From: Dictyostelium discoideum
Taxonomy: Eukaryota
DNA length: 64,000 nt
Direction: 5' to 3'
Assembly (NCBI GenBank): GCA_000004695.1
Contig: CM000151.3
Span: 8,064,001 to 8,128,000 of the forward strand
The position numbers were made by a program, and so were the translations under genes. Each line of letters starts with the position of its first letter. The stretch's first letter is position 1. Positions 11,566-34,992 of this stretch are shown here, in pieces. The notes under the pieces were generated by a model. That model worked only from the letters and a program-made list of their open reading frames with translations. It was not told where the DNA came from and ran no database searches.

Positions 11566-12553
11566 TTTAATTAAAATTACAAATATTTATTTTTACTATT
11601 AGAAAAAAAAAATCTAACCAAACTATCTGTTGTGCTCAAAAAAGCGAATTTATATTTCGATATTTTTTGGGATCTAAAATGAAAAAAAAGTATTTTTTTT
11701 TTTTGGTCACCTTGGTTGGAAATAATTTCTCTGGCGGTTTTCGTGTTTTATTTTTATTTTTTTTTTTTTTTTCACACTTAATTTTTTTACTTTCATTTTT
11801 TATTTATTTTCTGTAATTAATTATACATTTTATTTAAAAAAAGAGATTGAAAAAAGATAGAAAAAAAAAAAAAAAAGAGAAATTAAATGTGATCATTTAT
11901 TAGTTAAACATAAAAAGATTTTTCAATTATATTATATAATATATTATAATTAATTAAACCTATAAAGATTTTTGATTATATAATATTATATTTTACAATT
12001 AAAAAAAAAAAATTAAAATATACTTTCATTAACCAATAAAAATAAAAATAAAAAAAACATACTTTTATTTTTTTATTTTTTTTTTTTTATATTTTTTATT
12101 ATATTTTTTTTTATATTTTTTTTTTTATTTTTTTTTTATTAACACACACATATAAAAGTAAAGGGAACCTGTGACCAAAAAAGAAAATTACATTATTAAG
12201 AGAAAACGACTTGTATTATGAGCATTAAGTATAAGAAAGCTAAAAATTTTATTTTGACCAAAAATTTTTTTTTTAATTCCCAAAAACAATATGGTGTGTT
12301 AATTAAATTTTATTTTCCCTATTAGGAGATTTGTTTTTTCTAATATAAAAAATTTTAAAAAAAATAACAAATCAAACTTATGTTTCGGAATTATAAATAT
12401 AAAAATAAAAAAATAAAAACCAAATTGATTTTTTTTTTTTTTTTTTTTTTAATAACTAATTTCTATTTAGGTTTTTTTTTTTTTTTTTTTTTTTTGGATG
12501 ATTATTTATTTTAACTTATATATATAGAATAAATAATACTTTTAATTAATTAG

Positions 12554-13553
12554 ATGGATAAAATTAAAAATAATAATGAAAGTAATAATTTTAAATATTG
12601 TAAAGATTATAATATAAAAGAATTATTATTAAAAAGATTAAAATTAGATATCAACACAAAAATTCAAACTTTGGATGATATCTCAAAAATTCATATTGTA
12701 TTTTCAAGGAAAATACCCTTTGATAATTCTGATTTATTAATAAATGGATTTAAACCACCTTTTTCAGTTGAAAATATTATAAAAAGAGTTTTAATTGATA
12801 AATTTGGTAATTATTATTATTAAATTACTATTTTTTTAAAAAAGTAAACAATTATTTTCTAAATTTTAATTTAAAAAAAAATAAAAAAATAAAATAAAAT
12901 TAAAAGGTAGTTATTGTACAAATTTAAATATTTTATTTGGATTATTTTTATGTGAAATGGGTATTGATGTTAGATTGATAAAAGGTATTGAAGGATCAAC
13001 ATTATTAAAAAGTCCATGGTTTCACAACCATTTTAGTAATATTATATATTGGGAGAATAAATTATATTACCTTGATGTTGGATTTGGTTGTATTACACCA
13101 TTTAAACCACTTGAATTATTAAATGAAGAAACTATTAAAAATTATAATGAAAATGAAAATAAAAATGAAATTAATAAAACTGTATATAGAGTTAGAAAAT
13201 TAAAAAATGATGATGATGATGATGAATATTTATATGAAGAAAAATTTATTGATAAAATCAAACCTCAAAATCCATTATTTAGTCCAGTTTTTCATTTTAA
13301 TTTATCACCTGTTACATATGAAATAATTGAATATAGAGTTGAACCATATTCAAAATTTGATGTTGATAAAGTAATTTTAATTAAATTATTTAAAAAAGGA
13401 AGTTACCATTTATTTAAAGATAAACTAATAATTGATTATTATGATAATAATAAAAATCAAATTAAAGAAATTAACGATAATATTACATTTAATAATTATT
13501 ATAAAACATTATTTTATAAAAAAAATAAAAGTATTTTTATAAAAATTTATTAA
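12554..13553 (+). CDS. Arylamine N-acetyltransferase (NAT) family protein, tandem copy 2. Exons: 12554..12806 and 12907..13553.
   Basis: The structure and motifs are the same as copy 1 (GSYCTNLNILFGLFLCEMGIDVRLIKG, YYLDVGFGCITPF). The intron is 100 nt with a GTAATT donor and an aaaag acceptor. Confidence 0.7.
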
Positions 13554-13666
13554 TTTAATTAAAATTACAAATATATATTTTTACTATTATTATTGTTATT
13601 GTTATTATTATTATTATTATTTTTTTTTTTTTTTTTTTTTTTTTTTATTATTATTATTTTTTAAAA

Positions 13667-15208
13667 TTAATTTTGAATTATTTCTTCATCATTATCTTTA
13701 AATGGTTCATAATTATTATTTTCATTATCTTCATTATTAAATTCATTATAATCTGAAGAATTTATACCTTGATTTTCAATTAATGGTTTTAATAAATTTG
13801 AATATTGAGGATTTTCAATAGTTTCTTCACAATCATCAGATTGTTTAAAACTTCTACCAGTGATTTTTGCTAAGATGTTTCTAAAGATTGTACCCCAATT
13901 TTCACGAAGTAATTGATATAAAATGATAGAGACAAAAGTGGAAACACCAATTGCATCAATTTTAATTTTACCCCATTCAACATTTACACTAATCATACCA
14001 GTACCTAAAACAATTGAAATACCGGCAGTTAAAAGATTTCTTGGTTTTGAAAAATCAACTTGAGAATTAATCCAAAGTTTTGCACCAGTTATAGCAGTGA
14101 TACCAAATAAAACAATTGATAAACCACCGAAAATACCTGGAGGTATAGTTTGAACGATTGCGCCGAAAATTGGTAAACATCCCAACACAATTGCGATACA
14201 TGCAGCAAATACGAATGAAAGGGTTGAGAAAATCTTTGTTATACTCATTACACCAATGTTTTCAGCGTAGGTTGTTGTACCAGAACTACCAAAGAATCCG
14301 GCTAAAATACATGCCAATGCATCACCTATAAAAGTTCTACCCAATAAATTATCCATACTATATTCAGTCATTGATGAAACCGCTTTTAAGTGACCAATAT
14401 TCTCTGCAGCTAAAATTACGGCAACAGGTGCAATCATTGAAATGTAAGTTGAATCGAATGATGGTAAATGAGTTTGTGGTAAACCAATCCATTTTGCATC
14501 ACTTACTACACTAAAATCAATACCTGGTCCAACACCTCCCAATCCACATAATAAATAAACTACATATGATACAACCCCACCAATTAAAATGGGTAATCTT
14601 TTCAAAGGGCCAGGTGCATAACATGTAATCATCACTACCAAAAGTATGGTTAATGCAGCCATCCATGCATCAAATCCTGTGGTTGCAGCTTGACCAACTG
14701 CTGAATTTGCTAAATGGAGACCAATGGAAACGATAACGGATCCAGTTACAACGGGTGGTGTTAAAAATTCAATCCATGCATGACCTGCAACCATTACAAG
14801 CAATCCAATGGCTAAATAAATAAATCCACAAACTACAATACCACCTGCTGCTGGAGAAATGTTTGGATTCGTTGTACCAGGTGAATAAATATATCCAGTG
14901 GCTGAATTAACAACTCCAATGAATGCAAAAGATGATCCTAAATATGACGGTACCTTACCTCCAGTGCATACATAGAATATCAATGTACCAACACCAGAGA
15001 AAAATAATGCTGAATTTGTACTAAATCCCATCAATAATGGGCATAAAATATTACCTCCAAACATTGCTAAAATATGTTGAAATGATAAAAAAAATGATGG
15101 TATAATTGGTATTCTTTCATCTGGCATAATAGGTATATCACTAGTATTTTTTAATTTATATTTTGGAAAATAATCCAAAATCATTATTTTTATATTTTCC
15201 CACATCAT
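13667..15208 (-). CDS. Nucleobase:cation symporter-2 (NCS2) family permease (xanthine/uracil permease-like)
   Basis: This is a single 513-aa ORF with multiple TM helices. It carries NCS2-like blocks (QHILAMFGGNILCPLLMGF, GVGTLIFYVCTGGKVPSYLGSSFAFIG, AENIGVMSITKIFS) and a low-complexity acidic/Asn tail. Confidence 0.8.
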   Translation of the reverse strand: MMWENIKIMILDYFPKYKLKNTSDIPIMPDERIPIIPSFFLSFQHILAMFGGNILCPLLMGFSTNSALFFSGVGTLIFYVCTGGKVPSYLGSSFAFIGVVNSATGYIYSPGTTNPNISPAAGGIVVCGFIYLAIGLLVMVAGHAWIEFLTPPVVTGSVIVSIGLHLANSAVGQAATTGFDAWMAALTILLVVMITCYAPGPLKRLPILIGGVVSYVVYLLCGLGGVGPGIDFSVVSDAKWIGLPQTHLPSFDSTYISMIAPVAVILAAENIGHLKAVSSMTEYSMDNLLGRTFIGDALACILAGFFGSSGTTTYAENIGVMSITKIFSTLSFVFAACIAIVLGCLPIFGAIVQTIPPGIFGGLSIVLFGITAITGAKLWINSQVDFSKPRNLLTAGISIVLGTGMISVNVEWGKIKIDAIGVSTFVSIILYQLLRENWGTIFRNILAKITGRSFKQSDDCEETIENPQYSNLLKPLIENQGINSSDYNEFNNEDNENNNYEPFKDNDEEIIQN

Positions 15209-15324: not shown

Positions 15325-15383
<59 letters not shown>

Positions 15384-15827
15384 TATATCTTTTTAACAGG
15401 GTCTTGGAGTGAAAAAAAAAAAAAAAATAATAATAATGCCGATGACGAAAAAAGTTTTATAAGTTTATAAAGCTCGGATAAAAAATCTTTTGACGGGCTT
15501 GTTTTGAAATTAAAATAATAAAAATAAAAACCTGGTATTCATTTTTTTTTATTTTATTTTTAATATTTTTAAATTGTTTTTTTTTTTTTTTTTTTTTTTT
15601 TAAGATATTTGCAAAACACCAAACCTGACAAAAAAAAAAAAAAAATATTTTCATTTTTTTTTTTTAGCAACTGAATAATTTTATTTATTTTTAATGTGGA
15701 TTTAGTTTTCAGAAATAGAGGATTAAAAAAATAAACAAAATGATATAAAATATAAACAAAATTAAAGTATACATTCTGATCTAAATTTTTTTTTTTTTTT
15801 TTTTATAATTATTATTATTATTTTATT

Positions 15828-18800
15828 TTAATTTGCGCTTGAAGAAAATCTTTGAAGTTTTCTTTTTAATGGGGCTTCAACAAATCTTTTTTTGTAAATT
15901 ATGAAAACAATAGCAATAATTGCAGCTAGACCTCCAACTGGAACAGCGATCACAACTGGTAAAAACCATGACTCACGATTATTATCATCACATTCATCAA
16001 TGAATTCAGGACTAATCAATACAGAGAAGTCAGGATCTAATAAACATTTCTTTGTACAATGAGGTAAATTCATACCAACTGTAATTGAATCATTTGATTT
16101 TGATACTAACACAGTTTGCATAAATGTTGATATACCATCACTTTCGATTCTGTCTATAAATCTACCATTTAAAACTTTTGCATCTTTTTTAATAGCTATA
16201 TAATTTAATGAATTATCTTGATTTGGTGTACTATTAATTTCAATTTGATCATCATTACAATCATTTTCATTATTTGTTTGAATTTCATTTACACTTGATT
16301 TCATTTGTAATTGTAATGTATTTAAATTACTTGAATATTGATAATTTTCAATTGATACTGTCATTTTAACTGATCCACTTGTTAATTTAAAATTAATGCC
16401 TGCAAATGATACATCTCTATCTTTATTAATTTCTTCAATTGTATATGTGATATTACATTTATCATTTTGAATTGATTGAATGAATGTGTAAACTGTTTTA
16501 CTAATATTTGAAATTATTGACCATTTATTTAATAATAGATACTCATTGATTTGATTACCATTGAAATCTATCTCTATTAATTTTGTAATTAAAATTTGAT
16601 AATTTGTTTGTTGATTTGTAATATTTGTATTACCAGTATTACCATCTATTGTTGTATTAGATCCTGGTAATCCACCACTATTATCGCCACCACCACTTGG
16701 ATTTGAATATAAACTACAATCATAACCGCTCCATCTTCCAATACAATTACAATATCCAGTTGTTGTATTACAAATACCATTTGATGTCGATGTACAATGA
16801 TTTGGACATTGTTTATCATTTGAATAATATTGATAAATATCTTTTGATGTTACGTTGATTGAATTTTGAATTACACTTACTGATTTTAAACCTGTACCTG
16901 GTGGTGCTTTACAAATAATTTCACTTTCAGATATATTATAAATTGGTATACATTGTTTATTACCAATGAAAACTTGTGGATCAGTATGATTATTACCAAA
17001 CCAACCATAAATTGAAGCGCTACCACCATTGGTATCACTTGGTGAAACTGCTGATATTGTATGTAATGGAATTGAACAATCAATACCAATCCATTCGTAA
17101 GGAGTGATTGGGCATGAACAAATACCAGTCTGATTATTACATTGACCAATATTATTACAATTATTTAAACATTGTTTAAATGGGATTGAGCAATCATCAC
17201 CTTGATGGTTTGAATCACATTTACATTGACCAATATCAGATAAACAGTAACCATTACCATTACAATCATTATAATTTTCAGAACAATTTAAAATTACATT
17301 TATTCCACTTGGATTTAAAGTGAATTGCGTCGTTAAACCTCCAATTGTAATATATGATAAAATATCCTCCAAAGATGGGTCTACCACACTAGAAATTGTA
17401 CAGTATATTTGATAAAATGATGTACTTGAAACTATACAATTATAATTACCAATAGTAATGTTTACAATTGATTGATTAAAAGTAAAGAATGAACCATCGA
17501 AAATTAAACTACTTGAACCCAATACCCAATCTACCATTTCTAATCTTGGTGGTATATCTTGAGTTGACAATGGGAATATATAATTTGGATTGTTACTATA
17601 TATCAAGTAAACAATTGGTGGTGGTTTTATGGTTGTGATTGCACTTATTATTTTATTTGGTTTTATTACTTTGATATCAAATCTGTCTCCATTTTCAGTA
17701 ACTAGAAAGTTTGAGTTAACCCATGAACCACCTATATTTTCACCAAAAATATAATATTCATATTCGACATAATACATTGAATAATTATATATATTTACGA
17801 GTCTAAGATTTGGAATAATAATACCTTTTAAAAAATTTGTTATTATTTTTTGATAATTTATTGTTAAAAATTGTATTTTTAATTATGAAAAAAAAAAAAA
17901 AAAAAAAAAAAAAAGAATTTTTAAACTTACTTGGTGAAGATGGTTGATTCAAATTTGAAAAAGAATTACCAATGAATCTAGATTCTAAATCTATATTAAC
18001 TAATCCAAAGAAACATGTAAAACATGATGGAATTAATCCAGTCATTGAGTTATTACTTACAATTAAATCTAATTCACAATATGAATCATCAATTGTTCCA
18101 GTTATTTGATTAAAACTAATATCGATGCTTGTTAATTTATTATTAATTGTTCTATTGAAAATTGGTAAAGAACCTGACATTACATTATCGACTAAATTTA
18201 ATTTTTTAACATTTGTAAATAATGAAAAATCAAATGTTTCAATATATGCATTTTTGAGGGTGAACTCTTCAAATTTTTCATTTGTTGGTAAAATAAAAGG
18301 AAGTGAACCACCAAATGTAAAACCTCTACCAGTATCTTTAAAAATTAATTCTTTCATTGATTTACCAACTAATGATAAATCAATTAAAGATGGTGGGCTT
18401 AAAAGTAGTGTTCTTTCAAATTCACTTTTTTTTTTTTTTTAGTGTTAGCTATTTTCAATTATCCAATTAATAAATCAATATAAACACAAATAAAACTTAC
18501 ATTCTTGTTAAATTTTCAGCTCTAATTTGTGAAAATTCAATTGATGGGAAATTTATCTCATCATATACCTGAATTGATAAAGTATTTAAACTTTCACACT
18601 GAGTAATATTAATCCATGAAGATTGGTCAAAACCTGGAAGAAGAACAAGTTGGAAATATGCATTTATATATTTAAATGAAGGTACATTTAAGGATACAAC
18701 TTTAATATAAGATGGATTCCATATGAAGGTTCCATCTAGATCATTTTCAAAATAAATTAAATGAGATCCTATTCCAATAATACTTGAAGTTTGTATTGAT

Positions 18801-18838
<38 letters not shown>

Positions 18839-19392
18839 AGGAATTAGTTAAAAATTATAAATAATATTAAATTTTTAAAATATACATACACTTGATCTGC
18901 TTTAGAAAATATTGAAAATTTAATTTGAGTAGGAAAGGTTTGAGTTTTCATTGTTACTGAAAAATATAAAACAGTAGGTGGAAGTGGTAAAAACTGTATA
19001 TTCTCTTGAATAAGATCAAATCTTGTGGTTTTTTGAGGAAGTGAAGAATATAAAATATCACTATCTAAAACAACTGTACTTAGTGAAAGAGATGTCATGT
19101 TTTCATAACATAAAAAATCATCACCCAAAACATATGACATATTTGATTGTCCAAGGTTTAAAGTGGAAATGTAATTTTTATCACAACCAATATATAACAT
19201 TGGTTGAAAAAAAAAATCAGCTTTACAAAAATCATATTTTGATGTTGTGACATTTGGTGTGAGTTTTGAAATTGTACCCAAATTGGTTAATAAAGTTTTT
19301 ATACAATCATATTCTTTTTGGCTTAACTGTTGTTGTGAATTTACACAAATTATTAAAAAAAAAAACAACAATAGTGAATTTAAAGAAAACAT
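15828..19392 (-). CDS. Type I membrane protein with LRR, EGF, IPT/TIG and TM regions, paralog A (tgr-like). Four exons: 19392..18890, 18800..18501, 18397..17931 and 17824..15828.
   Basis: Exon 1 has a signal peptide and a Cys-capped N-terminus (MFSLNSLLLFFFLIICVNSQQQLSQKEYDC...). Exons 2-3 carry plant-type LRR-like repeats (LNLVDNVMSGSLP, ISFNQITGTIDDSYC, NNSMTGLIPSCF). Exon 4 carries EGF-like repeats (CNGNGYCLSDIGQCKCDSNHQGDDCS), an IPT/TIG domain (HTISAVSPSDTNGGSASIYGWFGNNHTDPQVFIGNKQCIPIYNISESEIICKAPPGTGLKSVSV), a conserved unknown domain and a TM anchor (FLPVVIAVPVGGLAAIIAIVFIIYKKRF). The splice phases are consistent: GTATGT, GTAAGT and GTAAGT donors with aag acceptors. Confidence 0.7.
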
Positions 19393-19725
19393 ATTGTTTT
19401 GTGTGATGAGGTTGTGATGGTTCTTTATATTTATTTTTATTTTTTTTTTTTTTTTTTTTTTTGTGCAAAAACCACCATTTCAAAAAAATCTAAAAAAAAT
19501 CTGGAAAAAAAAGAAAATTCAAAAAATTTACTTTTTCCCAAAGATATTTTTTTTTTTTGAAAAAAAAATAATCAAAACCATCGTAAAAATTATTTTATTT
19601 TATTTTTTTTAAAATTTTTTTTTTTTCAAATCAAACAACCATCCTAAAACTTATTTTTTTTTTTATAATTAACAATATGACCGAATGTGCGAATTTTCAT
19701 TTTTTAGATTTTTTTTTTTTTTTTT

Positions 19726-19757
<32 letters not shown>

Positions 19758-20074
19758 GAAATATATTTCAAATAAGAATAAAGATATTTTGTTTAAATAA
19801 AAGTGATAAAAATAGAATACAAAAAGGAATAAAAAAAAAAAAAAAAAATTATAGTCCATTTTTTTAATACACATTTTTTTTTTTTTTTTTATATTTATTT
19901 TTAGATCTATTAAATTTATTTATTTTTAGATCTATTAAATTTATTTAATTTCATTTATTTTATTTTTTTATTTATTATTTTTAAATAGAGACTCTGAAAG
20001 GTTTGATGATCTTAATTTATAATAATAGAATTTTATTTTCATTATTTTGTTGACCAAAATAAGAAATATATCCG

Positions 20075-20079
<5 letters not shown>

Positions 20080-20143
<64 letters not shown>

Positions 20144-20153
20144 TTTATTATTT

Positions 20154-20184
<31 letters not shown>

Positions 20185-20185
20185 G
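20080..20185. repeat. (ATT)n microsatellite, about 35 units
   Basis: Uninterrupted tattattatt... with a few TTTTTA interruptions, read directly from the sequence. Confidence 0.9.
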
Positions 20186-20435
20186 TTTAGTAATCACCAA
20201 TAATATTATTATAAAACTTAAAAAAATAAAGTTGGTTTTAATTCATAATATTCGTTGTTTTTTTTTTTTTTTTTTTTTTTTTACATTAATGAGTAGATCT
20301 ACGAATATTTTGTTTTGCGCTTGGGATGCAGTAATGAATCTTAGCTATTTGAATTTTAATTTCTTTTTTTTTAAAGTTATTACATTTCTAAATGGGATTC
20401 GATCCCTTGACCCAAAGTTTTATTTTTAAAAAAAG

Positions 20436-20506
20436 TGCCGCGACCTGGAATCGAACCAGGGTCAACAGAGCCACAATCTGATGTACTACCACTATACTAT
20501 CACGGC
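20436..20506 (-). tRNA. tRNA-His (anticodon GTG)
   Basis: The minus-strand sequence is GCCGTGATAGTATAGTGGTAGTACATCAGATTGTGGCTCTGTTGACCCTGGTTCGATTCCAGGTCGCGGCA (71 nt). It has a cloverleaf and a canonical GGTTCGATTCC T-arm. Its acceptor, D-arm and anticodon loop (TTGTGGC) are near-identical to eukaryotic tRNA-His-GTG. Confidence 0.85.
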
Positions 20507-20555
20507 GAATTTTGATATTTTTTCAAAAAACTGCTCACACCGATTTTATATTTTT

Positions 20556-20617
<62 letters not shown>

Positions 20618-21299
20618 CCGAAAACATTCTTTCAGGGAATTTCCAGAATTTTAAATTTTTAAAGTCGAATAAAGATTTTAAAGAAAAAAAAAGAAATGAA
20701 TAAATTGGCAAATACAATAATGACAGAATCAACAGAAACATTGGCAGATAAAATCAAGAAATCAAATGAACTCAGAACAAAGTTCAAATATTTAAAAAAT
20801 ACGTACAGAACACTTGATAAAATAAGCGAAGCAATATACCACACTCAAATTGAACTAAAACAATCACAGCAAAGAAAAATGCACCTTTAAAGCAAATTTA
20901 AAGAAAAGTTGATTTAAATTGGATTTAAATTGAATTTAAAGCCGCGTTTAAAAAATTCATTTTTAAGGTAATTTTTAAGGTAATTTTTAAGATATTTAAA
21001 AATGCCTTTAAAATTTGCTTTAAAATAAATTTTTAAGCAATTTTAAAGGTGATTTTAAAGGTGATTTTAAAGGTGATTTTTAAGGTAATTTTTAAGATAA
21101 TTTTTAAGATATTTAAAAATACCTTTAAAATTTATTTTAAATTAATTTTAAATAGGATTTAAAGTAGATTTAAAGTATATTTAAAGTGAATTTAAATTTC
21201 CTTTAAACATAAATTTAAGGTTTTTAATAAAAAAGATCTAATTTTAGAACAAAAAAATGGGGATAAAATATTCTATCATTTTTAAATTTTTCATCAAAG

Positions 21300-21440
21300 C
21301 AATCAAATGGTTTAATGGTTGATGAGACTACCCTTTGATAGAGGGTCGGGGGATCGAATCCCTTTTGGTAATTTTTGAAAAATTAAAAAAAAAATTTTTA
21401 AAAAATTTATCCGTTAAATAACGGCTTCGAACTCAGGACC
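21300..21440. other. tRNA-like fragments embedded in the retrotransposon 5' region (not a functional tRNA call)
   Basis: The plus-strand segment gtttaatggttgatgagactaccctttgatagagggt folds as a D-arm plus an anticodon arm (loop TTGATAG). The T-arm-like GGGGGATCGAATCCC is degenerate and no acceptor stem pairs. A second fragment is an imperfect hairpin, ccgttaaataacgg. These may be remnants of the tRNA target or part of the element's B-module. Confidence 0.2.
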
Positions 21441-21621
21441 TCGCTTTTAAAGCCATTAAAAAGGTAATTTTAAAGGTAATTTTAACGGCGTTCTAAAGAC
21501 CCCCTAAAAATTACCTTTAAAATTACCTTTAAAATTTTTTTAATTCAGGACTTTAAAGCAAATTTAAATTTAATTTAAAGCGAATTTAAAGGTGGTTTTT
21601 TCTTCGCTGTGATATAAATTC

Positions 21622-22803
21622 ATGATCAATATCCCAGATGAGATATCCAACAACTTGAAAGCAGAATTGGAAATCCATTTACAAGGAGATGATAAGATAA
21701 TAACAAGTAAGAATAAATTCAAAATCCTCACGGACTGCAGAACTCAAGTAATCAAGTACTCTAACGTTTTCAACGGAGTACTAAAAGGAGTTCACAGAGC
21801 AATAATAAAACCAAAAAAGATCTTCAAAACATTCAACTGGGAAAAATCAATGGACATAGTAGAAAAAACATTGCATGAAGAAGGACTGGAAATAATCAAA
21901 TTAGATAATTTAGGTGAAAACCTGATAATACACTCATTCAACTCAATTATCAGTCCAGAGCACAAAGACCAGCTAATACATTGTAAACACATAACAATAC
22001 TATTCCTCACTACAACAGAAGAAACAAAAAATCAAAGAAAAACAAATAGGGAAATCGAAGACGAAATCTCAGAAAACTCAAAAATCACGGAACTACCAAA
22101 TTCCGAGACAAAGGAAAACACAAGAATAAACATAAAATCAAAAGAAGAATTCAATCATAAAAACACTAGCGAATCAAAAAATAACAACAAAAACAAAATA
22201 GAAAACAAAAAAGAAAATAATAAAGAAATCAATAATGAAAACATCAAAGACAAGAGCAAAAACGAAAAAGTAAAGGAAAAAGAAATTGAAAATAAAAAAC
22301 CCACAACAATTAGAGCAACAACAACAACCACAACGACAGAAACGACAAATACAATAAACAATATTGAAAAGAGAAAAGTACTTCGTATCCCACCAATAAC
22401 AGTAACATATAGTGTTGACAGCAAAGAGAAAAGGAGAATGGAGTTAACTGAAGATGAAGAAGCATTAGAAGTGGTAAGAAAGATGTTCGAAAATGAAGAA
22501 GAGAACAGAATTTTTGAAGAAAAAATAAATAACCAAAAAAAGAAGGAAACCCCAAGGTTAGCCTCAATCAAAAAAAGACAAACAATGTCACCTATCCAAA
22601 ATTCAGAATCTCCAGCAACGCCAGAGATAGTAAAAAGAAAAAGATTCAACTCATCTCCAAACCCAACAACTAATCACCAAGAAATTTTAACACCTTACAA
22701 AACTCCAATTAAAATAACAAAGGAAGAATCAGATTTAATGGAAGCAGCACTAAGAGACAAATTGCCCAAAGTACTCCAAGACGTACTTCCATCTGTCTCA
22801 TTT

Positions 22804-22809
<6 letters not shown>
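21622..22809 (+). CDS. Retrotransposon ORF1 (nucleic-acid-binding, Lys/Glu/Asn-rich)
   Basis: A 395-aa ORF lying immediately upstream of ORF2 and separated from it by a poly(A) stretch. Its composition is typical of LINE ORF1. Confidence 0.55.
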
Positions 22810-22853
<44 letters not shown>

Positions 22854-22856
<3 letters not shown>

Positions 22857-25802
22857 ATAAAAATAATGACCTGGAATTGCCAAGGTTGCTCAACAATCAA
22901 AAGCATGAATCAGACAAAAAATACAATTAACCTAATAAAACCTGATATATCAATACTAACAGAAACAAATCTAAAAAAGGATCAAAATCTAGCGCAAATC
23001 AAAAACCATTACTCAACAGGAGGAAAAGGAAAAGAAGCAAGAGGAAAAGGAGTAATGGCAATAAATCACCTAGAACAAATAGAAATTAAAAACTTGGAAG
23101 AAAAAGAAGGCAGAATCTTAAAATTTACTGCAATTCTAAACAATACGGAAATCAACATAATTGGCATCTATGCACCAGCCTCATATGACAGAAGAAAAGG
23201 ATGGTTTTCAAACAATATTTCCCTTGGAGATCTAGAACAGGCAGACATAGTTACTGGTGACTTTAACATCAACAAATATGCAAAAATCAAGTTCAAAGAT
23301 GGATCATCCGATAAGAGAAAATTCACAGAAAATGAAACAATAGAATTCCTAATGATGGAAGTAGGACTCACCGAAATACTACCAAATTCAACAACTAAAA
23401 CAACCTTCAAAGATAAACTAATCGATAGAACATTCTTATCAACAAAGATGCACCAACTCAATCACTCGTACAAGATAATAGATAAAATAAACAAATCAGA
23501 CCATAACATAGTAGTGATGGATTTCAAAATACCAAATTTCACAAAAATATACAAATCACCCCTATGGAAAATGAACTCAATAATAATTAAAGAAGATAAA
23601 ACAATAAAAAAGATAGAAAAAATAATCGACCACTACCAGGAAACCAAAAGAAAAAACCTTAACATAACGGAATACTGGATTAAGTTCAAAAAAAAAATAA
23701 AAAAACAATGCATTACAACAGAAAAGAAAAGAATACTAGAGAGAAAAAAAACGCTATCAAATCTAGCAAATGAACACACAAAAACAAAAAACAAATATGA
23801 AAAAGAAACAATATCGAACGAAATAACAATACTTCAAGAAGAAGAAAGAATAGACAGAATGATCAAAAGCTCAATCAACTACATCAACAATAAAGAAATA
23901 GCATCAAATCTCCTTACATCTATTCTTAAAAAAAGAGACTCGAGCTCCCAGATTCACAGAATAAAGAACCCATCCAATGGAGAAATCGAAACAGAACAAA
24001 AAGAAATAACAGATTGCTTCAGAAAATATTACGAGACACTCTTCAAAGAGAAAGAATGCGACCAAGAAACACATACAGAACTTCTAAGCACCTGGAACCC
24101 ACCAATAGATAAAAAAAAATTAACAGAGATGGAAGACAGAATCGAAGAATATGAGGTTAAGCTAGCAATAGAAAAGATAGCAGAAGGTAAATCACCAGGA
24201 GAAGATGGAATAACATCTTCATTCTATAAAATCCACCAACACAAACTAATTCCAATCCTCACAGAACTATTCAACTTCTTTTTAAACAATGAAATTCCAA
24301 CAGAATTCAAGAACGGTATCCTTACATCAATATACAAAGGTAAAGGGGATGTCTTGGAAATCTCAAACAGAAGACCAATAACGTTACTCAACGTAGACTA
24401 CAAAATCTACTCAAAAATAATCAACAATAGAATACTAAAAATCCTGCCAAACATAATCTCAAAGTACCAGAACGGTTTTATACCAGGAAGGCTACTCCAC
24501 AACAACATTATAGCTTTGGATTTAGCAATGGAAAAGAGTGATAGAAACACGATAATCACCTTTTATGACTTCGAAAAAGCCTTCGATTCAATATCTCATA
24601 AAGCGTTAATAAGGACTCTAAACCATCTAAAGTTCCCTCGGAAAATAACAAACACAATACTAAGCATGTTAACGAACACCAACATAAGGGTCATGGTAAA
24701 TGGACAACTCTCTGAATCCTTCAGAGCAGGAAGAGGTACAAAACAGGGCGACCCAATTTCACCAACTCTCTTCGCTATAGTATGTGAATGCTTATCAACA
24801 TCAATAAGAAAAGACAATACCATAATAGGCATAAAACTCAATCAGAACAATTCGATGAAGATTGGACAATATGCAGACGACACAGTCACACTAGCCAGTA
24901 ACATAGATGACGCAGATAAAATGGATATGAAAGTTATAAAATTTTGCCAAGCCACAGCAGCAAAAATAAACGATAATAAATGTGTGTGCATCACTAAAAA
25001 CCCAAAGATAAAGACCAAATATAAGACAATTGGGGCGAAAGAAGAAGAAAGATATCTTGGCTTTTTCTTCAACCGCAAAGGTGTAATAAGCAAAGTAGAT
25101 GATACGGTGAACAAACTGGAAAACCTCACAAAATGCTATTCGAGCGTGTCATCAACGCTAAAAGGTAGAATCACAATCCTCAAATCATACCTGCTGTCCC
25201 AACTAACATTCCAACTATACATCAACGAAATAAATGACATAAAGAAACTGGAGAACGTTAATGCCAACATGTTATTCAAAGGGGACAGGTGGGCTATCTC
25301 AAAAGAAAGGAGCAGAAGAGACTATGAAATTGGAGGCCTGGAACTCTGGAATATGGCAACCAGATCCAATGCCCAGAAAGCATGGATATACGAACAATAC
25401 CTCAGAGAAAAAGACGACCAGAACTGCCCTCCACATATGGAAGTCTGGAAGTCGGAAAAAGAAAACTCACTATCAAGGATTCACATCAAATGCTGGAAAG
25501 CCTGGAAGTTGTTGCACCACCCAAGAGAGCGAATAACTCTCAAACTAAACCAAGTCAAACCCAAATATGAAAACAAACAAAAATTAAAAGTAATCTATAG
25601 AAACATGATGGATATCAAATACAAGGGATGGAACAAACACCAGCCAACAACAGGTCAAAAACTGATTCAAAAGAACATTAATCACCCAATTCTACCATTT
25701 AGAGAAGCCAGATCAATCACAACTATCAAAGGAAGAGACTTAGCATGGAGGTATCTACTCAAGGCACTTCCAAAACACCATGGGGAGAATTGCCACTTGT
25801 AA
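22854..25802 (+). CDS. Retrotransposon ORF2: apurinic-type endonuclease plus reverse transcriptase
   Basis: A 982-aa ORF. It has an EEP/APE-like N-terminus, RT motifs (PGRLLHNNIIALDLAMEK; FYDFEKAFDSISHKALI; GTKQGDPISPTLFAIV; QYADDTVTLA) and a C-terminal Cys/His-rich segment (HHGENCHL). Confidence 0.85.
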
Positions 25803-26281
25803 AGAAGAAGAGTCGTCTATGCACATCTTCTTCGAATGCAAATCAATAAAACAGGATATCGACTCAATCTATCAAAAGGTCTGTAAAGACTCTAACAACA
25901 CTTACCACGGTCCATGGAGCGAAAAAGTTCTCGGAAAACTACTCACACCATTCTCATCAAATCTGATAGGAGCCATTATGGAATCGATATGGTACAGAAG
26001 AAATCAAATAAAATTCAACGATAACACTACAATAATAACAGAGAACCAAATAATTCATAAAATCAAAAAAGCGAGAGATGCCGAATGGGATAGAACAAGA
26101 AAGATAGTAGAAAAGCAACTACGTCAAGAACTAAAATGCACTGATAACCGAGAGTCAATCAATCGGACCGCATCAATAAAAAGAAGACTCGAAAAATTCA
26201 GCCACAACTGGAACTCGAAACTCATGACCATAAACATCCCGGAACACTTCATACCATACTGCTCATATAACACCAACTACT

Positions 26282-26286
<5 letters not shown>
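25780..26286 (+). CDS. Retrotransposon 3' ORF. This is a possible out-of-frame continuation of the ORF2 C-terminal Cys-rich region.
   Basis: A 168-aa ORF that overlaps the ORF2 stop. It contains CKEEESSMHIFFECKS and ends in the duplicated 3' module. It may indicate a frameshifted, non-autonomous copy. Confidence 0.3.
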
Positions 26287-26318
<32 letters not shown>

Positions 26319-26382
26319 ATAACAATAATAATAATAACAATAATATAATAATAATATAATAATAATAAAAAAAAAAATAAGA

Positions 26383-26416
<34 letters not shown>

Positions 26417-26676
26417 ACAAATAAACTCTCCTAGAACACACTCAAATTGAGTGATGTTATTAAAAAAAAAAAAAAAATTTTATATTTTACCTTTATGGAT
26501 AGTAGAAAAGCAACTACGACAAGAACTAAAATGCACTGATAACCGAGAGTCAATCAATCGGACCGCATCAATAAAAAGAAGACTCGAAAAATTCAGTCAC
26601 AACTGGAACTAGAAACTCATGACCATAAACATCCCGGAACACTTCAGACCATACTGCTCATATAACACCAACTACT

Positions 26677-26717
<41 letters not shown>

Positions 26718-26890
26718 ATAACAATAATAATAATAATAATATAATAATAATAATAATATAATAATAATAATAATAAAAAAATAAGAATAAAATAAAAAAA
26801 AAAAAATATATAAAAAAAAAAAAAACTACAAATAAACTCTCCTAGAACACACTCAAATTGAGTGATGTTATTAAAAAAAACAATGACAGC
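26104..26890 (+). repeat. Tandem duplication of the retrotransposon 3' module (about 395 bp, two copies), each with poly(A), (ATAATA)n and a shared tail motif
   Basis: The block atagtagaaaagcaactacg(t/a)caagaactaaaatgcactgataaccgagagtcaatcaatcggaccgcatc...ctcatataacaccaactactcataaaaaaa occurs at 26104-26315 and again at 26499-26715. The tail ctacaaataaactctcctagaacacactcaaattgagtgatgttatt occurs at 26414 and again at 26826. Confidence 0.8.
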
Positions 26891-26924
26891 AAAAAAAAAA
26901 AAAGTTTGTTTACAATTATTTTTA

Positions 26925-29032
26925 TTATTTTCTGTTTAATAATTTAATCTGTCTTTTGAAACGGGCCTCAACAAATCTTTTTTTATAAATTACGTATAAT
27001 AGTGCTATAATCAAAGCACATGCAACCACTGGTACGGTAATGGCAACTGGTAAAACCCAAAATTTTTGATCATTTCCACGGCACCCGTCAACGAATTCAG
27101 GACTAACCAATACAGAGAAGTCAGGATCTAATAAACATTTCTTTGTACAATGAGGTAAATTCATACCAACTGTAATTGAATCATTTGATTTTGATATTAA
27201 TACAGTTTTCATAAATGTTGATATTCCATCACTTTCGATTCTGTCTATAAATCTACCATTTAAAACTTTTGCATCTTTTTTAATTGTTATATAATTTAAT
27301 GAATTATCTTGATTTGGTGTATTATTGATTTCAATTTGATCATCGTTACAATCATTTTCATTATTTGTTTGAATTTCATTTACACTTGATTTCATTTGTA
27401 ATTGTAAAGTATTTAAATTACTTGAATATTGATAGTTTTCAATTGATACTGTCATTTTAACTGATCCACTTGTTAATTTAAAATTAATACCTGCAAATGA
27501 TACATCTCTATCTTTATTAACTTCTTCAATTGTATATGTGATATTACATTTATCATTTTGAATTGATTGAATGAATGTGTAAACTGTTTTACTAATATTT
27601 GAAATTATTGACCATTTATTTAATAATAGATACTCATTGATTTGATTACCATTGAAATCTATCTCTATTAATTTTGTAATTAAAATTTGATAATTTGTTT
27701 GTTGATTTGTAATATTTGTATTACCAGTATTACCATCTATTGTTGTATTAGATCCTGGTAATCCACCATTATTACCACCACTACTGCCACCACCACTTGG
27801 ATTTGAATATAAACTACAATCATAACCGCTCCATCTTCCAATACAATTACAATATCCAGTTGTTGTATTACAAATACCATTTGATGCCGATGTACAATGA
27901 TTTGGACATTGTTTATCATTTGAATAATATTGATAAATATCTTTTGATGTTACATTGATTGAATTTTGAATTACGCTAACTGATTTTAAACCTGTACCTG
28001 GTGGTGCTTTACAATTAATTTCACTTTCAGATATATTATAAATTGGTATACATTGTATATTACCAATGAAAACTTGTGGATTAGTATGATTATTACCAAA
28101 CCAACCATAAATTGAAGCATTACCACCATTGATGTCACTTGGTGAAACTGCTGATATTGTATGTAATGGAATTGAGCAATCATTACCAGTCCATCCAAAA
28201 GGAGTGATTTGACATGAGCAAATACCAGTTTGATTATTACATTGACCAACACTATTACAATCATTTAAACATTCTTTTAATGGTAATCCACATGCATCAC
28301 CTTGATGATTTGAATCACATTGACATTTACCAGTTAGAGTTGTACAAATACCATTACCATTACAGTCAAGTGGATTACAATCGATATATGGCAAAGAACA
28401 ATCATCACCTTGATGTGTTGAATCACATTGACATTTACCAATATCAGATAAACAATAACCATTACCATTACAATCATTATAAGCAGAACAGTTTAAAATT
28501 TTATTTATTAAACCTGGATTTAAAGTGAATTGAGTTGTTAAATTACCAATTGTAATATATGATAAAATGTTTTTAAAGGAATCTATACTATTGAAGACTG
28601 TACATGATATTTGATTAAATGATGTACTTGTTACAAAGCAATTATCGCTACCAATTGTAATATTTACAATTGATTTATTATATGTAAAGAATGAACCATC
28701 GAAAACCAAATTCAAAGCACTTGATTGCCAATCAACCTTTTCTAAAAGAGGATTAATATTTCTGGTTGATAATTTAAAAAAATAGTTTGGATCCACTGGG
28801 CTATATTTCATGGAAATAACATCTGGAAGTTTTGAATAAGACACAACCCTTATTAATTTATTAACAATTAAAAATTGACTAGCATAATAACTACCAAAAT
28901 CATCAACAACCAAGTTTGTTGGAATCCAAATACCACCTAAATTTTCACCAAATATAAAGAATTCATACTCTAAATAAGTTGTAAAATTCTTTACATTACC
29001 TGGCATAAAGTTTGGAATAATTATTGCTAAAA

Positions 29033-29086
<54 letters not shown>

Positions 29087-29666
29087 TTGTTAAAATTTAT
29101 GCACAAACTATTATTAATAATATTAAAAAACAAATACTTACATGTAGATGATGGATAGTTATTTGTAAAATTGTTACCAGAGAATTTATAACTAAAACTT
29201 GGTAATCCTAAGAAACATGTAAAACATGATGGTATAGTACCATTCATTAAATTATTTCTTACATATAAATCAACAGAACAGAATGAATCATCAATGGTAC
29301 CTGTTATTTTATTATCCATAATATTAATATATTTCAATTTTCCAAATAATGTTATATTGAAAACTAATGGAAATGAACCAGAGATAACATTATTTTCTAA
29401 TGTTAAAATTTCAACATTATTAAATAATGAGAAATCAAGTGTTTCAATATATCCACCTGAAAATGAAAATGATTTGAAATTCTTGTTTTTTGGTAAAATA
29501 AATGGGAATAAACCGCCGCCATATTGAAAATTTCTACCACATTTTGTAAAACTCATTGATTCAATTGAATTACCAATTGATGAAAAATCAATTATACTTG
29601 GCACACTAGAAATATAAGAATCAATCCAACTATTTCATAAATATATATTTTTAAAATGTTAGACTT

Positions 29667-29758
<92 letters not shown>

Positions 29759-30099
29759 TTATTAGAAAAATAATAAAACCTTACATCAACTTTAAATTAT
29801 CAGATCTAATTTGAGAAAATTCAAATGATGGAAATTGAATAAAATCATTTGAATGAATTGTTAAAGAGGTTATATTTTCGATTGTCGATATATTACTCCA
29901 TGAGGATTGTAAAAAATTGGGAAGTAATACCATATCAAATCGACCCTTAATAAATCTAAGCAATGGTATATTCCTTGTTATAATACTATTATCTGATTCC
30001 CATATTTTAGAACCATCCAAATCATTTTCAAAAAAAATTGAATGTGATATAAATGATAAACTAATCCATGGTGGAATATTTAATGAACTATTATATTGT

Positions 30100-30193
<94 letters not shown>

Positions 30194-30791
30194 TGTTGTT
30201 GTAGTAGTAGTAGTAGAAGTAGTTAGTAATTGTGAAATAAAACGAAATTTATTATATAATAATAATAATAATAATTATACATTACAATTGTATTAAGTTT
30301 TTTAAATATGAAAATTTAATTGTTGTTTCAATTGTTTGGCTAACAATGGATGCGTGAAAGTAATTTAATGATGGTTGTAATTGAGAGAATAGTAAATTAC
30401 TACCATACAAATTTAAAAATTCTAAATTTTGCGGTAATGCCGAATAAAGAGTGCTATTGTAAATTGTTGAATTTAGTGAAAGATCATTTAAATTTTCAAA
30501 ACATAAAAAATCATCACTAATCACATATGAATTTGATTGTCCAAGATTTAAACTATTAATTTGATTTTCATAACAACCTACAGATACAATTGGTTGACTA
30601 GTATTTTGAGTATTACAAAAATCATATTCAAGTGTTGAACTATTTTTAAAATTAACTTTTGAAATTGTACCTAAATTTATTAATAAATTTTCCATACATT
30701 CATTTTCTTTTGGACTTAATATTTGTTGTTGTGAATTTACAAAAACTATTAAAATAAATAATAAAAATAAAATTAGATAAAAGTTGAACAT
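26925..30791 (-). CDS. Type I membrane protein with LRR, EGF, IPT/TIG and TM regions, paralog B (tgr-like), carrying one extra EGF repeat. Four exons: 30791..30286, 30060..29785, 29605..29142 and 29016..26925.
   Basis: Its N-terminal half is closest to paralog A. Exon 4 (693 aa) adds an EGF module (CNPLDCNGNGICTTLTGKCQCDSNHQGDACGLP) and has a distinct TM and tail (VLPVAITVPVVACALIIALLYVIYKKRFVEARFKRQIKLLNRK). Donors are GTAATG, GTAAGG and GTAAGT. The introns are filled with (CTA)n and (ATT)n microsatellites on the coding strand. Confidence 0.7.
29023..29087. repeat. (AAT)n microsatellite in paralog B intron 3
   Basis: Direct read: aataataataat.... Confidence 0.9.
29668..29755. repeat. (AAT)n microsatellite in paralog B intron 2
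   Basis: Direct read: aataataat... about 30 units. Confidence 0.9.
30101..30236. repeat. (TAG)n microsatellite of about 40 units, with a short TTG/TAG/AAG degenerate end, inside paralog B intron 1
   Basis: Direct read: tagtagtag.... It reads (CTA)n on the gene's coding strand and lies between the GTAATG donor at 30285 and the attag acceptor at 30061. Confidence 0.9.
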
Positions 30792-34023: not shown

Positions 34024-34948
34024 ATGTTAAAATTTATTCAAAAAATTTCAAAATCAAGGTGTAATTTTTTATATATATTTTTAATTTTAATTTTAATTAA
34101 TTTTTCAAATCCAAAAGTAAATTCTCAAACATTAAATAAAAATGAATATGATTGTTTAAAGAGTTTGTTAACCAATTTGGGATCAATCAATAAAGTTAAA
34201 ATTAATGCAACATCTTTAGAATATTTATTTTGTGGTACAATGGAATTTTCATCACCAAATGTTCAAATATTTTGTAATGAAGGTTCAATTTCAAAACTAA
34301 ATGTAGGACAAGCTAATTTCACATATACAGTAACTGATGATTTTTCATGTTTTAAAAATATGACTGAATTATCAGTGGATGATATTGTTTATGATAAAGA
34401 TAAATTTTATAATTAATATCCTCCAAATGCAAAAGAATTTTCATTTGATGGCACTGATTTAGTTTATGGAACTATTTCACCAATTATTAAAAAATATAAC
34501 TCAATGTCAATACAAAAAATACCAACAATAATTAAATTTTCTTGGTATTTAAATACAACTAAAATGTAGGTATAAAATAAATTATTATTATAATTAAAAT
34601 TATTTTTTTTTTAATCATTTTTATTTTCCTATTTAAAAAAAAAAAAAAAGTCATATAGAACTCTTTAGTACCTTTTAAAGGATATTTTTTAGTTTCATTT
34701 GATAATGATCTTGATGGTTCAAAAATTTGGGATTGTTCTATTTTAATTCATTCTCTAAATGTTCCATCATTAAATTTTATTACAGGCGATATTTCTTTAA
34801 ATCTAATGTTAGATTACGATCAATCATCATGGGGAAATATTACAACTTTTGGAGGAATGAGATATATGTCTCTAAGAGCTTCAGATTTATCATCTTTTCC
34901 ATTAGAGTTTTCAAATTTAAGATCTGAAGTTTTAAAATCTATGTATGT

Positions 34949-34992
<44 letters not shown>

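Follow-up and report, generated by a model that had tools for sequence, protein, structure and literature searches.

A Dictyostelium discoideum tRNA-His gene very probably hit twice by an L1-like TRE5-class non-LTR retrotransposon, most likely TRE5-B

The window analysed here is a stretch of 64,000 nucleotides of the Dictyostelium discoideum genome with a GC content of ~20%. It contains a tRNA-His(GUG) gene on the minus strand (20435–20506, with its 5′ end at 20506) which was found with ARAGORN and which is covered over the full model by Rfam RF00005 with 65 bits (E = 1.7e-13). This gene is the integration target of the retrotransposon described below. Upstream of it lie 48 bp of original target DNA (20507–20554), a long retrotransposon copy on the plus strand (20557–26477; 5,921 bp including a nested element of 747 bp) and a 383 bp stump, also on the plus strand (26498–26880). 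The two genes flanking this arrangement belong to a cluster of comC-like paralogs that has at least five members. The initial annotation had described them as a paralog pair; they are paralogous, but do not form an isolated pair. About 29 nt downstream of the tRNA-His gene, past its T7 terminator, the B-box-like motif GGGATCGAATCCC can be read directly from the sequence on the minus strand (20394–20406), and it looks like a putative “external B box”. It also forms an inverted-repeat pair (I4) with a tRNA-like piece of the nested 747 bp element. A possible TRE3 remnant to the left of the tRNA-His gene, at a T26 run and its neighbouring sequence (20258–20350), was dropped; when BLASTed against all comparison loci this region matched only the same locus.

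The long copy is 97–99% identical to six full-length copies of its family (L001–L006). Its first inserted base (20555/20557) is 48–50 bp away from the 5′ end of the tRNA-His gene and the two are oriented head to head. The earlier placement of the element, upstream at a distance of about 50 bp and in this orientation, thus agrees with the 48 bp of target that we measured. The 11-mer TTTTATATTTT, found at 20544–20554 and at 26478–26488, is the target site duplication (TSD) of the long copy. The left copy makes up the final 11–12 bp of the target, (A)TTTTATATTTT (20543/4–20554). As the plus strand of the 64 kb window contains the 11-mer only seven times, its presence at both junctions by chance would be expected in roughly 1 in 1000 cases. 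A TSD had been anticipated near 20545 and 26890; the left copy is indeed near 20545, whereas the right copy is not at 26890 but directly behind the first poly(A) tail. When the 5′ junction is compared with the right TSD copy and the full-length copies, two additional bases “tc” become apparent (20555–20556, plus strand), which match neither the target nor the family sequence. Untemplated 5′ additions are known for elements using target-primed reverse transcription (PMC5391098).

The long copy starts with a run of 58 A (20557–20614, plus strand), and it had been left to be checked whether this run belongs to the element or to the target. Judged by the other copies it is element sequence and not target: the arrangement ...GACTT-A(36–49)-CCTCCGAAAAC is present in all six full-length copies, and an A-run also precedes CCTCCGAAAAC in L007, a member of a 75% identical sister family. 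Upstream of the A-run the full-length copies carry 1.4–5.4 tandem A-module-like units of 198 bp, and therefore the long copy is 5′-truncated. As part of an explanation which as a whole we hold with good confidence, the truncation would lie within the internal A-run, so that this copy never had the A-module-like promoter repeats. It is very unlikely that the copy inserted at full length and lost the repeats by a later deletion, or that the A-run is untemplated or derived from the target. Such a history could draw on the greater length of the A-run (58 here vs 36–49 elsewhere) and on the slippage that is common in A-runs. But apart from two bases the left TSD abuts the A-run, and a deletion after insertion would need to end precisely at this junction; the constant position of the run before CCTCCGAAAAC in the six copies and L007 marks it as element sequence, and the same 5′ junction is present in the allele of GCA_054883475.1. 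The truncated copy continues with a B-module-like 5′ UTR and the start of ORF1 (20615–20864, plus strand). The first ~55 nt of this 5′ UTR (from 20615) are conserved with the B-module of TRE5-A. ORF1 starts with the ATG at 20696, and its first 56 authentic codons precede the nested element.

The remainder of ORF1 follows on the plus strand behind the nested element (21612–22809), with an open frame from 21622 to 22809 of 395 aa in comparison to 454 aa for the intact ORF1. [quoted passage not shown] Within its first part (22854–25802) Pfam detects RVT_1 with E = 3.8e-37 and gives a weak match to Exo_endo_phos. The intact ORF2 of the family has 1,144 aa and aligns to residues 2–848 of the human LINE-1 ORF2p (E = 2e-57), and the ORF2 is 100% identical to one D. 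discoideum protein. Relative to five other copies, the two nucleotides “CA” are deleted after position 25797, which splits ORF2 into the frame 22854–25802 and a shifted, overlapping frame 25780–26286 (168 aa). Thus, ORF1, the APE and RT containing ORF2 and the short, possibly frameshifted 3′ ORF of the initial annotation are all present, the latter being a product of the deletion. The “CA” is present in the same insertion in GCA_054883475.1, and its absence from the sequenced strain could reflect a sequencing error of that assembly.

The 3′ UTR (26287–26477, plus strand) is composed of an A-run, an (AAT)n microsatellite, a further A-run, a conserved terminal module of 47 nt and an A16 tail (26462–26477). 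The terminal module contains a hairpin (26435–26458) with a predicted RNA folding energy of −9.2 kcal/mol (z = −2.8), in which one pair of the stem shows a compensatory change from U-A to C-G in L007. The 5′ truncation, the splitting of ORF1 by a DNA element and the 2-nt deletion breaking ORF2 together make the long copy a dead relic for which autonomous movement is impossible; it is probably also devoid of transcription from a promoter of its own.

The element that splits ORF1 (20865–21611, plus strand) is a foreign foldback/TIR element of 747 bp. It ends with CACAGC...GCTGTG, carries subterminal repeats of the type TTTAAAG, is flanked by the 2 bp TSD AT (20863–4 and 21612–3) and has a DNA folding score of z = −10.9. 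The matching position is an empty site in L001–L006, whereas L001 and L006 harbor the same element at other positions and in the opposite orientation; a 2 bp TSD accompanies each of seven insertions of this element. The tRNA-like sequence reported at 21300–21440 is present, but it is not a part of the retrotransposon as it resides in this nested element: the stretch 21301–21371 reaches 20 bits with the Rfam tRNA model (threshold 29 bits), and the B-box-like motif GAGTTCGAAGCC is found on the minus strand at ~21415–21430. Weak matches to miRNA precursors in Rfam are far below threshold and were rejected, as they reflect the foldback repeats and not known miRNAs. The three independent insertions of the element all fall within ~18% of the sampled DNA, and by our own estimate, with coding DNA discounted, its enrichment in TRE5-B is not significant (P about 0.06). 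The literature on thug-S, DDT-S and Tdd-4 yielded no sequence for a comparison. It is a quite unlikely, tentative reading that the 747 bp element is an undescribed non-autonomous DNA transposon with a preference for TRE5-B or for nests of Pol III-associated transposable elements. This reading is based on the variable sequence of the 2 bp TSD, on the degenerate tRNA-like A/B-box module and on the location of all seven insertions inside other transposons. If it were true, the tRNA-derived module might serve the targeting of the element or might provide TREs with a decoy target.

Behind the right TSD copy follow 9 bp, “acctttatg” (26489–26497, read from the sequence between TSD and stump), which may be either old target DNA or filler, and then the stump. 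It retains ~190 nt from the end of ORF2 together with the 3′ UTR and ends in an A8 tail, the tail being interrupted (A8-caatgacagc-A13). An A-run closes both 3′ modules. The initial annotation had interpreted them as a tandem duplication of one module, a reading which did not hold, because the TSD encloses the long copy only and the second module is more diverged. Being outside this TSD and more diverged, the stump is in our reading of the sequence an older, independent, 5′-truncated insertion of TRE5-B at the same tRNA-His gene; a TSD belonging to the stump was looked for and not found. The two modules are adjacent, have the same orientation and are just 20 bp apart, and they could in principle stem from a single event, namely template switching of the RT, read-through from a tandem donor or tandem duplication at the locus. 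We regard this as highly improbable, since the TSD closes right behind the first tail and not behind the second and since the 20 bp spacer begins with target sequence. In addition, the identity of the two modules is no higher than 94% (26103–26469 vs 26498–26880). The stump diverges from the family by ~3% (97.1% identity to L001) as compared to ~1% in the corresponding part of the long copy (two differences in ~183 bp of this stretch). Finally, an identical layering, involving different TRE5 families, is found in L001 and L004, and it has been published that new TRE5-A copies insert between a tRNA gene and a copy already residing there (PMC5391098, PMC9012585). The stump as a separate insertion and the tRNA-like pieces of the nested element are a warning that such features, including a second poly(A) module, should not be taken for features of the retrotransposon.

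Seven other copies, the full-length copies L001–L006 and the 75% identical sister L007, are located at seven different tRNA genes. Their distances upstream of the tRNA gene are 47 bp for L001 (tRNA-Ala), 49 bp for L002 (tRNA-Gly), 48 bp for L003 (tRNA-Arg), 51 bp for L004 (tRNA-Asn), 43 bp for L005 (tRNA-Phe), 41 bp for L006 (tRNA-Asp) and 44 bp for L007 (tRNA-Thr). The orientation is head to head in eight out of eight copies when the copy of the window is included, so that eight copies confirm the range of 41–51 bp at the level of the family. TSDs of ~9–13 bp directly behind an A14–16 tail are present in all copies in which this junction was read (L001, L003–L006 and L007). The published values for TRE5 are a distance of 47 ± 3 bp, a strict orientation and TSDs of 10–16 bp (PMC5391098, PMC9012585). 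The seven further copies at 41–51 bp upstream of different tRNA genes in one orientation support the assignment to TRE5, and together with the RVT_1 match and the weak APE match they bear out the earlier call of a TRE5-class non-LTR element. An insertion of this kind is already well described and the targeting to ~50 bp upstream has been known for decades. As a separate observation, a TRE3 copy is located downstream of the tRNA-Asn gene in L004.

The name TRE5-B rests on exclusion, on the apparent relatedness to TRE5-A and on published descriptions, and not on a direct consensus alignment; with this basis we consider it most likely. TRE5-A fragments in L001 and L004 served as reference for TRE5-A, their identity being verified in two ways. 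All four published positions of C-module mutations (T15, C26, A35 and C38) fit the sequence of the TRE5-A fragment ...GCGTTATCCAATTC, and the ORF1 primer Rep-108 matches the TRE5-A fragments in L004 with one indel. Four TRE5-A qPCR primers (taken from PMC4559204), used as a proxy for the ORF1 and ORF2 sequence of TRE5-A, gave no match with up to three mismatches in the window and in six copies of the family. A self-BLAST of the element revealed no B-module repeated at the 5′ and 3′ end. The terminal 87 nt at the 3′ end are 59% identical to the C-module of TRE5-A, with shuffled sequences reaching 58.9 ± 2.7%. In contrast, the 198 bp 5′ unit and the A-module of TRE5-A share 77% identity (shuffles 59 ± 1.9%). 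TRE5-B is described as lacking the C-module and the 3′ B-module (PMC3159450), and it has been stated that “TRE5-A and TRE5-B are closely related” (PMC4559204). The N-terminus of ORF1 is 41% identical to that of TRE5-A, a comparison made over the N-terminal 54 aa; the published characteristic of TRE5-B is an identity of ~25% between its ORF1 and that of TRE5-A. Both the A-module-like unit and the ORF1 N-terminus would fit a kinship of TRE5-A and TRE5-B.

That the element is instead TRE5-C or an undescribed TRE5 subfamily is unlikely. In its favour, TRE5-B and TRE5-C were told apart by published descriptions, a short motif CTACAAATAAA just ahead of the terminal hairpin region is shared with the C-module of TRE5-A, and other isolates contain divergent sisters with 75% and 57–59% amino-acid identity. 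But the C-module of TRE5-C is 78% identical to that of TRE5-A (PMC3159450), and the 3′ end of our element reaches only the level of shuffled sequences. Moreover, just three TRE5 families, among seven TREs in total, have been described in D. discoideum (PMC5391098, PMC3159450), and the missing C-module, the missing 3′ B-module and the apparently close relationship to TRE5-A match the description of TRE5-B.

Comparing the TRE5-B-like copy with TRE5-B itself, both share the head-to-head insertion ~50 bp upstream and an ORF1 followed by an ORF2 with APE, RT and zinc finger; within the description of TRE5-B (Glockner et al. 2001) as rendered in PMC3159450 and PMC4559204, with which our comparison was made, nothing contradictory was found. 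The 5′ truncation, the nested DNA element in ORF1 and the 2-nt deletion in ORF2 are changes of the window copy itself. With TRE5-A (DRE), the best-studied element, the family shares target, distance, orientation, TSD length and the overall ORF layout, as well as a homologous A-module and 5′ leader; TRE5-A also has a terminal 3′ hairpin, which is likely required for reverse transcription. However, ORF1 and ORF2 overlap in TRE5-A and are here separated by an A-run, the duplicated B-module of the TRE5-A structure AB-ORF1/ORF2-BC is absent, and the C-module is unrelated to the 3′ end of our element. TRE5-C belongs to the TRE5 class and is likewise devoid of a 3′ B-module, but it ends with a C-module which is absent here. 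TRE3 elements have a related ORF2 with APE and RT (26–32% amino-acid identity to TRE3-type ORF2), but insert downstream of tRNA genes in the orientation of the tRNA, whereas the family of the window inserts head to head on the upstream side. Human LINE-1, whose ORF2 could be aligned across EN, tower and RT, resembles the family further in its poly(A) tail and TSDs, in being often 5′-truncated and in a CCHC-like motif at the C-terminus; it differs in having no tRNA gene targeting and an unrelated ORF1.

The mechanism of insertion is established for TRE5-A, and by analogy we carry it over to this locus. The ORF1 protein would dock on TFIIIB at the tRNA gene, as suggested by in-vitro work with the ORF1 proteins of TRE5-A and TRE5-B in the passages of PMC3159450 citing it. 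The ORF2 protein with its APE and RT would nick the target and reverse-transcribe the RNA from its poly(A) end (target-primed reverse transcription). Docking and ORF2 activity combined would lead to an insertion ~47 bp upstream of the tRNA gene with the 5′ ends facing each other. Sequence comparison shows a history of four steps. An early insertion left the 383 bp 3′ stump, then ~57 bp away from tRNA-His. A second insertion took place 48 bp from tRNA-His between the gene and the stump, duplicating 11–12 bp and yielding a copy 5′-truncated inside the internal A-run. Subsequently, the 747 bp foldback/TIR element entered ORF1 with a 2 bp TSD, and in the sequenced strain the 2-nt deletion broke the C-terminal Cys/His motif of ORF2. 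In the corrected annotation the locus holds a dead 5′-truncated copy resembling TRE5-B, the stump of an older insertion and, nested in the dead copy, a TIR element. TRE5 targeting is under experimental dissection, and this locus matters little beyond annotation.

The initial annotation had further proposed that the tRNA genes and TREs act as recombination substrates or boundaries. In fact, strain GCA_054859385.1 lacks a segment of 11.6 kb comprising the tRNA-His gene, both TRE copies and parts of two paralogs, as would be expected if the tRNA gene and the TRE marked or caused recombination of the flanking paralogs. Nevertheless, the breakpoint of this structural polymorphism, the only one found, is within paralog coding sequence. 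The 5′ part of the resulting chimeric gene is 95% identical to the right and ~65% to the left paralog, its 3′ end and flank are 97–98% identical to the left paralog, and the switch point is in the near-identical, conserved region coding for ComC_SSD, a hallmark of unequal crossing-over of the two genes with one another. Moreover, the three further paralogs at 34–46 kb of the window have neither a tRNA gene nor a TRE between them. A marking or causal role of the tRNA gene and the TRE is therefore not supported and seems highly unlikely. Of minor interest for specialists of Dictyostelium transposable elements are the variable number of A-module-like repeats and the compensatory change in the 3′ hairpin.

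The locus is a dead TRE5-B-like copy (20557–26477) together with an older stump (26498–26880) and a nested TIR element. The long copy is a well-known kind of element, and there is nothing new in this main finding. The initial annotation had identified the element correctly, and all the features it listed were found in place, whereas several of its secondary readings did not hold. On the plus strand the copy has a 395-aa open reading frame (21622–22809, the remainder of ORF1), a 982-aa ORF2 (22854–25802) and a 168-aa reading frame overlapping ORF2 (25780–26286). The 982-aa product shares 100% identity with a protein of Dictyostelium discoideum; it hits RVT_1 at E = 3.8e-37 and, at a weak level, Exo_endo_phos, a family of APE type. 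The intact ORF2 of the family has 1,144 aa and can be aligned with human LINE-1 ORF2p (residues 2–848, E = 2e-57). These domain matches and the alignment identify it as an L1-like non-LTR retrotransposon of the APE+RT type.

The tRNA-His gene is separated from the element by 48 bp of target DNA (20507–20554), the last 11 bp of which are TTTTATATTTT (20544–20554). At the 5′ junction this 11-mer is followed by two extra bases, tc, the A-run 20557–20614 and CCTCCGAAAAC; at the 3′ junction the terminal module ending in ...GAGTGATGTTATT is followed by A16 (26462–26477) and a second TTTTATATTTT (26478–26488). In the whole window, the plus strand contains this 11-mer only seven times. The two copies of TTTTATATTTT represent a genuine target-site duplication (TSD) around the element. 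The initial annotation had left undecided whether the A-run is element or target. It is element sequence: an A-run of 36–49 A stands immediately 5′ of CCTCCGAAAAC in all six full-length copies of the family. Upstream of it these copies have a tandem array of 1.4, 3.4 or 5.4 units of 198 bp (e.g., 8815–9870 in locus L004); the unit is 77% identical to the A-module of TRE5-A (shuffled sequence, 59 ± 1.9%). No such A-module-like unit is found in the window copy, which starts in the A-run directly past the TSD. The copy was therefore most probably 5′-truncated at insertion, and the presumed promoter repeats were never present. The 5′ junction is identical in the orthologous allele of assembly GCA_054883475.1.

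Other genomic copies were retrieved via their proteins: six full-length copies in GCA_054883475.1 (loci L001–L006) and one of a sister family, 75% identical to the window family, in GCA_054859355.1 (L007). The family element starts with GAGTAAGAGAAAAAACATC..., and a minus-strand tRNA gene adjoins all seven copies in head-to-head orientation. The distance between the 5′ ends of tRNA gene and element is 47 bp for tRNA-Ala (L001), 49 bp for tRNA-Gly (L002), 48 bp for tRNA-Arg (L003), 51 bp for tRNA-Asn (L004), 43 bp for tRNA-Phe (L005), 41 bp for tRNA-Asp (L006), and 44 bp for tRNA-Thr (L007). An A14–16 tail followed by a TSD of ∼9–13 bp was seen in every copy whose 3′ end was read, namely L001, L003–L006, and L007. 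Published TRE5 insertions lie 47 ± 3 bp upstream of the tRNA gene in strict orientation (PMC5391098) and have TSDs of 10–16 bp (PMC9012585). Distance, orientation and TSD length of the family agree with these values, and therefore the proposal of a TRE5-class element upstream of tRNA-His is supported by measurements on the family itself.

Which TRE5 family is present was approached by comparison with TRE5-A, fragments of which are found in L004 (15131–15870, 16800–17320) and L001 (14432–14760). These fragments were checked by the published ORF1 primer Rep-108, which is present with one indel, and by their 3′ end ...GCGTTATCCAATTC, which fits all four published mutation positions (T15, C26, A35, C38). 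The window element departs from TRE5-A in three respects: none of the four TRE5-A primers matches it, a repeated B-module is not found in it, and the identity of its 3′-terminal 87 nt with the TRE5-A C-module is 59%, equal to shuffled sequence. The C-module of TRE5-C is 78% identical to that of TRE5-A, and TRE5-B is described as having neither a C-module nor a 3′ B-module (PMC3159450) and as a close relative of TRE5-A (PMC4559204). This description fits, as relative to TRE5-A the element has a homologous A-module, a B-like leader and a homologous ORF1 N-terminus (41% identity over 54 aa). TRE5-B is the probable assignment, made by exclusion and from published descriptions. At L001 14432–14760 the ORF2 end of a 5′-truncated TRE5 fragment passes directly into an A-run and a C-module of TRE5-A type, the B-module being missing; this fragment may represent a TRE5-A variant or TRE5-C.

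The six full-length copies all have the base corresponding to 20864 joined directly to that at 21612; the 747 bp between them (20865–21611) are extra in the window copy. This segment has inverted ends (CACAGC...GCTGTG), TTTAAAG-type subterminal repeats and a flanking 2-bp duplication (AT), and its DNA forms a foldback structure (fold z = −10.9). Further copies of this ∼750-bp element lie in the 3′ UTR of the L001 copy (13467–14225) and in the ORF2 C-terminus of the L006 copy (13156–13915), both in orientation opposite to the window. Four more belong to a 9.85-kb nested TE cluster, which also has integrase (rve) ORFs and interrupts ORF2 of the TRE5-B copy in GCA_054883475.1 (window 24608–24613 versus 15311–23009 of L010 and 2641–4790 of L009, which hold the same TRE insertion); both sides of the cluster carry ∼6 bp of window sequence. 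These four occupy L010 16456–17215, 18647–19404, 20456–21215, and 22326–23009, the last extending past the locus end. All seven independent insertions are inside other transposons, each with a 2-bp TSD (AT, AA, AA, TA, AA, AA, GA). The 747-bp segment is a separate non-autonomous element of the cut-and-paste type that splits ORF1 (454 aa when intact) into a fragment at 20696–20890 and the 395-aa remainder. Its interior contains a minus-strand B box and a degenerate tRNA-like sequence (21301–21371; 20 bits with the Rfam tRNA model, threshold 29 bits). The reading of the tRNA-like fragments as part of the retrotransposon has to be revised, as they lie within this nested element, whose site is empty in L001–L006.

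The tRNA-His(GUG) gene itself (20435–20506, minus strand) scores 65 bits over the full Rfam model and is the sole tRNA gene in the very AT-rich window (GC near 20%). About 29 nt downstream of it, past the T7 terminator, is a minus-strand B-box-like GGGATCGAATCCC (20394–20406), and a 24-nt stretch around this motif is identical at 21 positions to the T-arm-like part of the nested element's tRNA-like piece. A T26 run (20258–20283), which lies ∼150 bp downstream of tRNA-His, may represent the tail of a very small retroelement remnant on the minus strand; among the fetched loci its flanking sequence has no match beyond the same locus.

The short 3′ ORF, suspected of being frameshifted, is so: relative to five other copies CA is missing after 25797, and as a result of this 2-nt deletion the reading frame changes within the C-terminal CX2CX7HX4C motif of ORF2. 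The orthologous allele in GCA_054883475.1 is without the deletion, which is therefore either private to the window sequence or an error. Divergence of the window copy from the others is ∼2% in the ORF1 part (21612–22809) and only ∼0.45% in the ORF2 part (22854–26286), which may point to a mosaic or to a different ORF1 sub-lineage.

The stump is not enclosed by the TSD that brackets the long copy. Between the two is a 20-bp spacer that starts with target sequence, and the stump shares 94% identity with the 3′ end of the long copy. Divergence from other family members is ∼3% for the stump and ∼1% for the corresponding part of the long copy; a TSD of the stump was not found. The stump is an older, heavily 5′-truncated insertion, and the long copy inserted later, between stump and tRNA-His. 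Tandem insertions are documented for TRE5-A (PMC5391098, PMC9012585), and in L001 and L004 TRE5-A fragments are distal to TRE5-B copies, with the same duplicated target common to both. The second 3′ module, formerly read as a tandem duplication, is accordingly a separate and more diverged stump outside the TSD. All copies share a conserved 47-nt terminus, which includes a hairpin (26435–26458; −9.2 kcal/mol, z = −2.8). In the 75%-identical sister family (L007, ∼10595–10618) both partners of one stem pair are substituted, CACTC/GAGTG becoming CACCC/GGGTG (U-A to C-G), and this compensatory change supports a functional 3′ stem, comparable to the C-module hairpin that TRE5-A requires (PMC3159450).

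Both neighbouring genes are comC-like (LRR_ComC, EGF, TIG, and ComC_SSD domains), the left and right paralogs being 75% identical. The window has at least five such paralogs in a cluster, two on the minus and three on the plus strand (15828–19392, 26925–30790, ∼34100–37600, ∼39500–41700, ∼43400–45870), with 3′ halves 90–94% identical and 5′ halves far more diverged. Prior to the arrival of the TREs, only ∼100 bp separated the tRNA gene from the right paralog's stop codon. GCA_054883475.1 has the same TRE insertion (99.3–99.5% identity). Strain GCA_054859385.1 is without ∼11.6 kb including tRNA-His and both TRE copies (window ∼15355–26950 versus 11400–14560 of its corresponding locus L008), and has one chimeric comC-like gene in place of two. 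The idea that the tRNA gene or the TRE served as a recombination substrate is not supported, as the switch point of this gene is within the near-identical ComC_SSD-coding region. In the 5′ part of the chimera, identity is 95% with the right paralog and ∼65% with the left; the 3′ end and flank match the left paralog at 97–98%. The gene looks like the product expected of unequal crossing-over between the paralogs.
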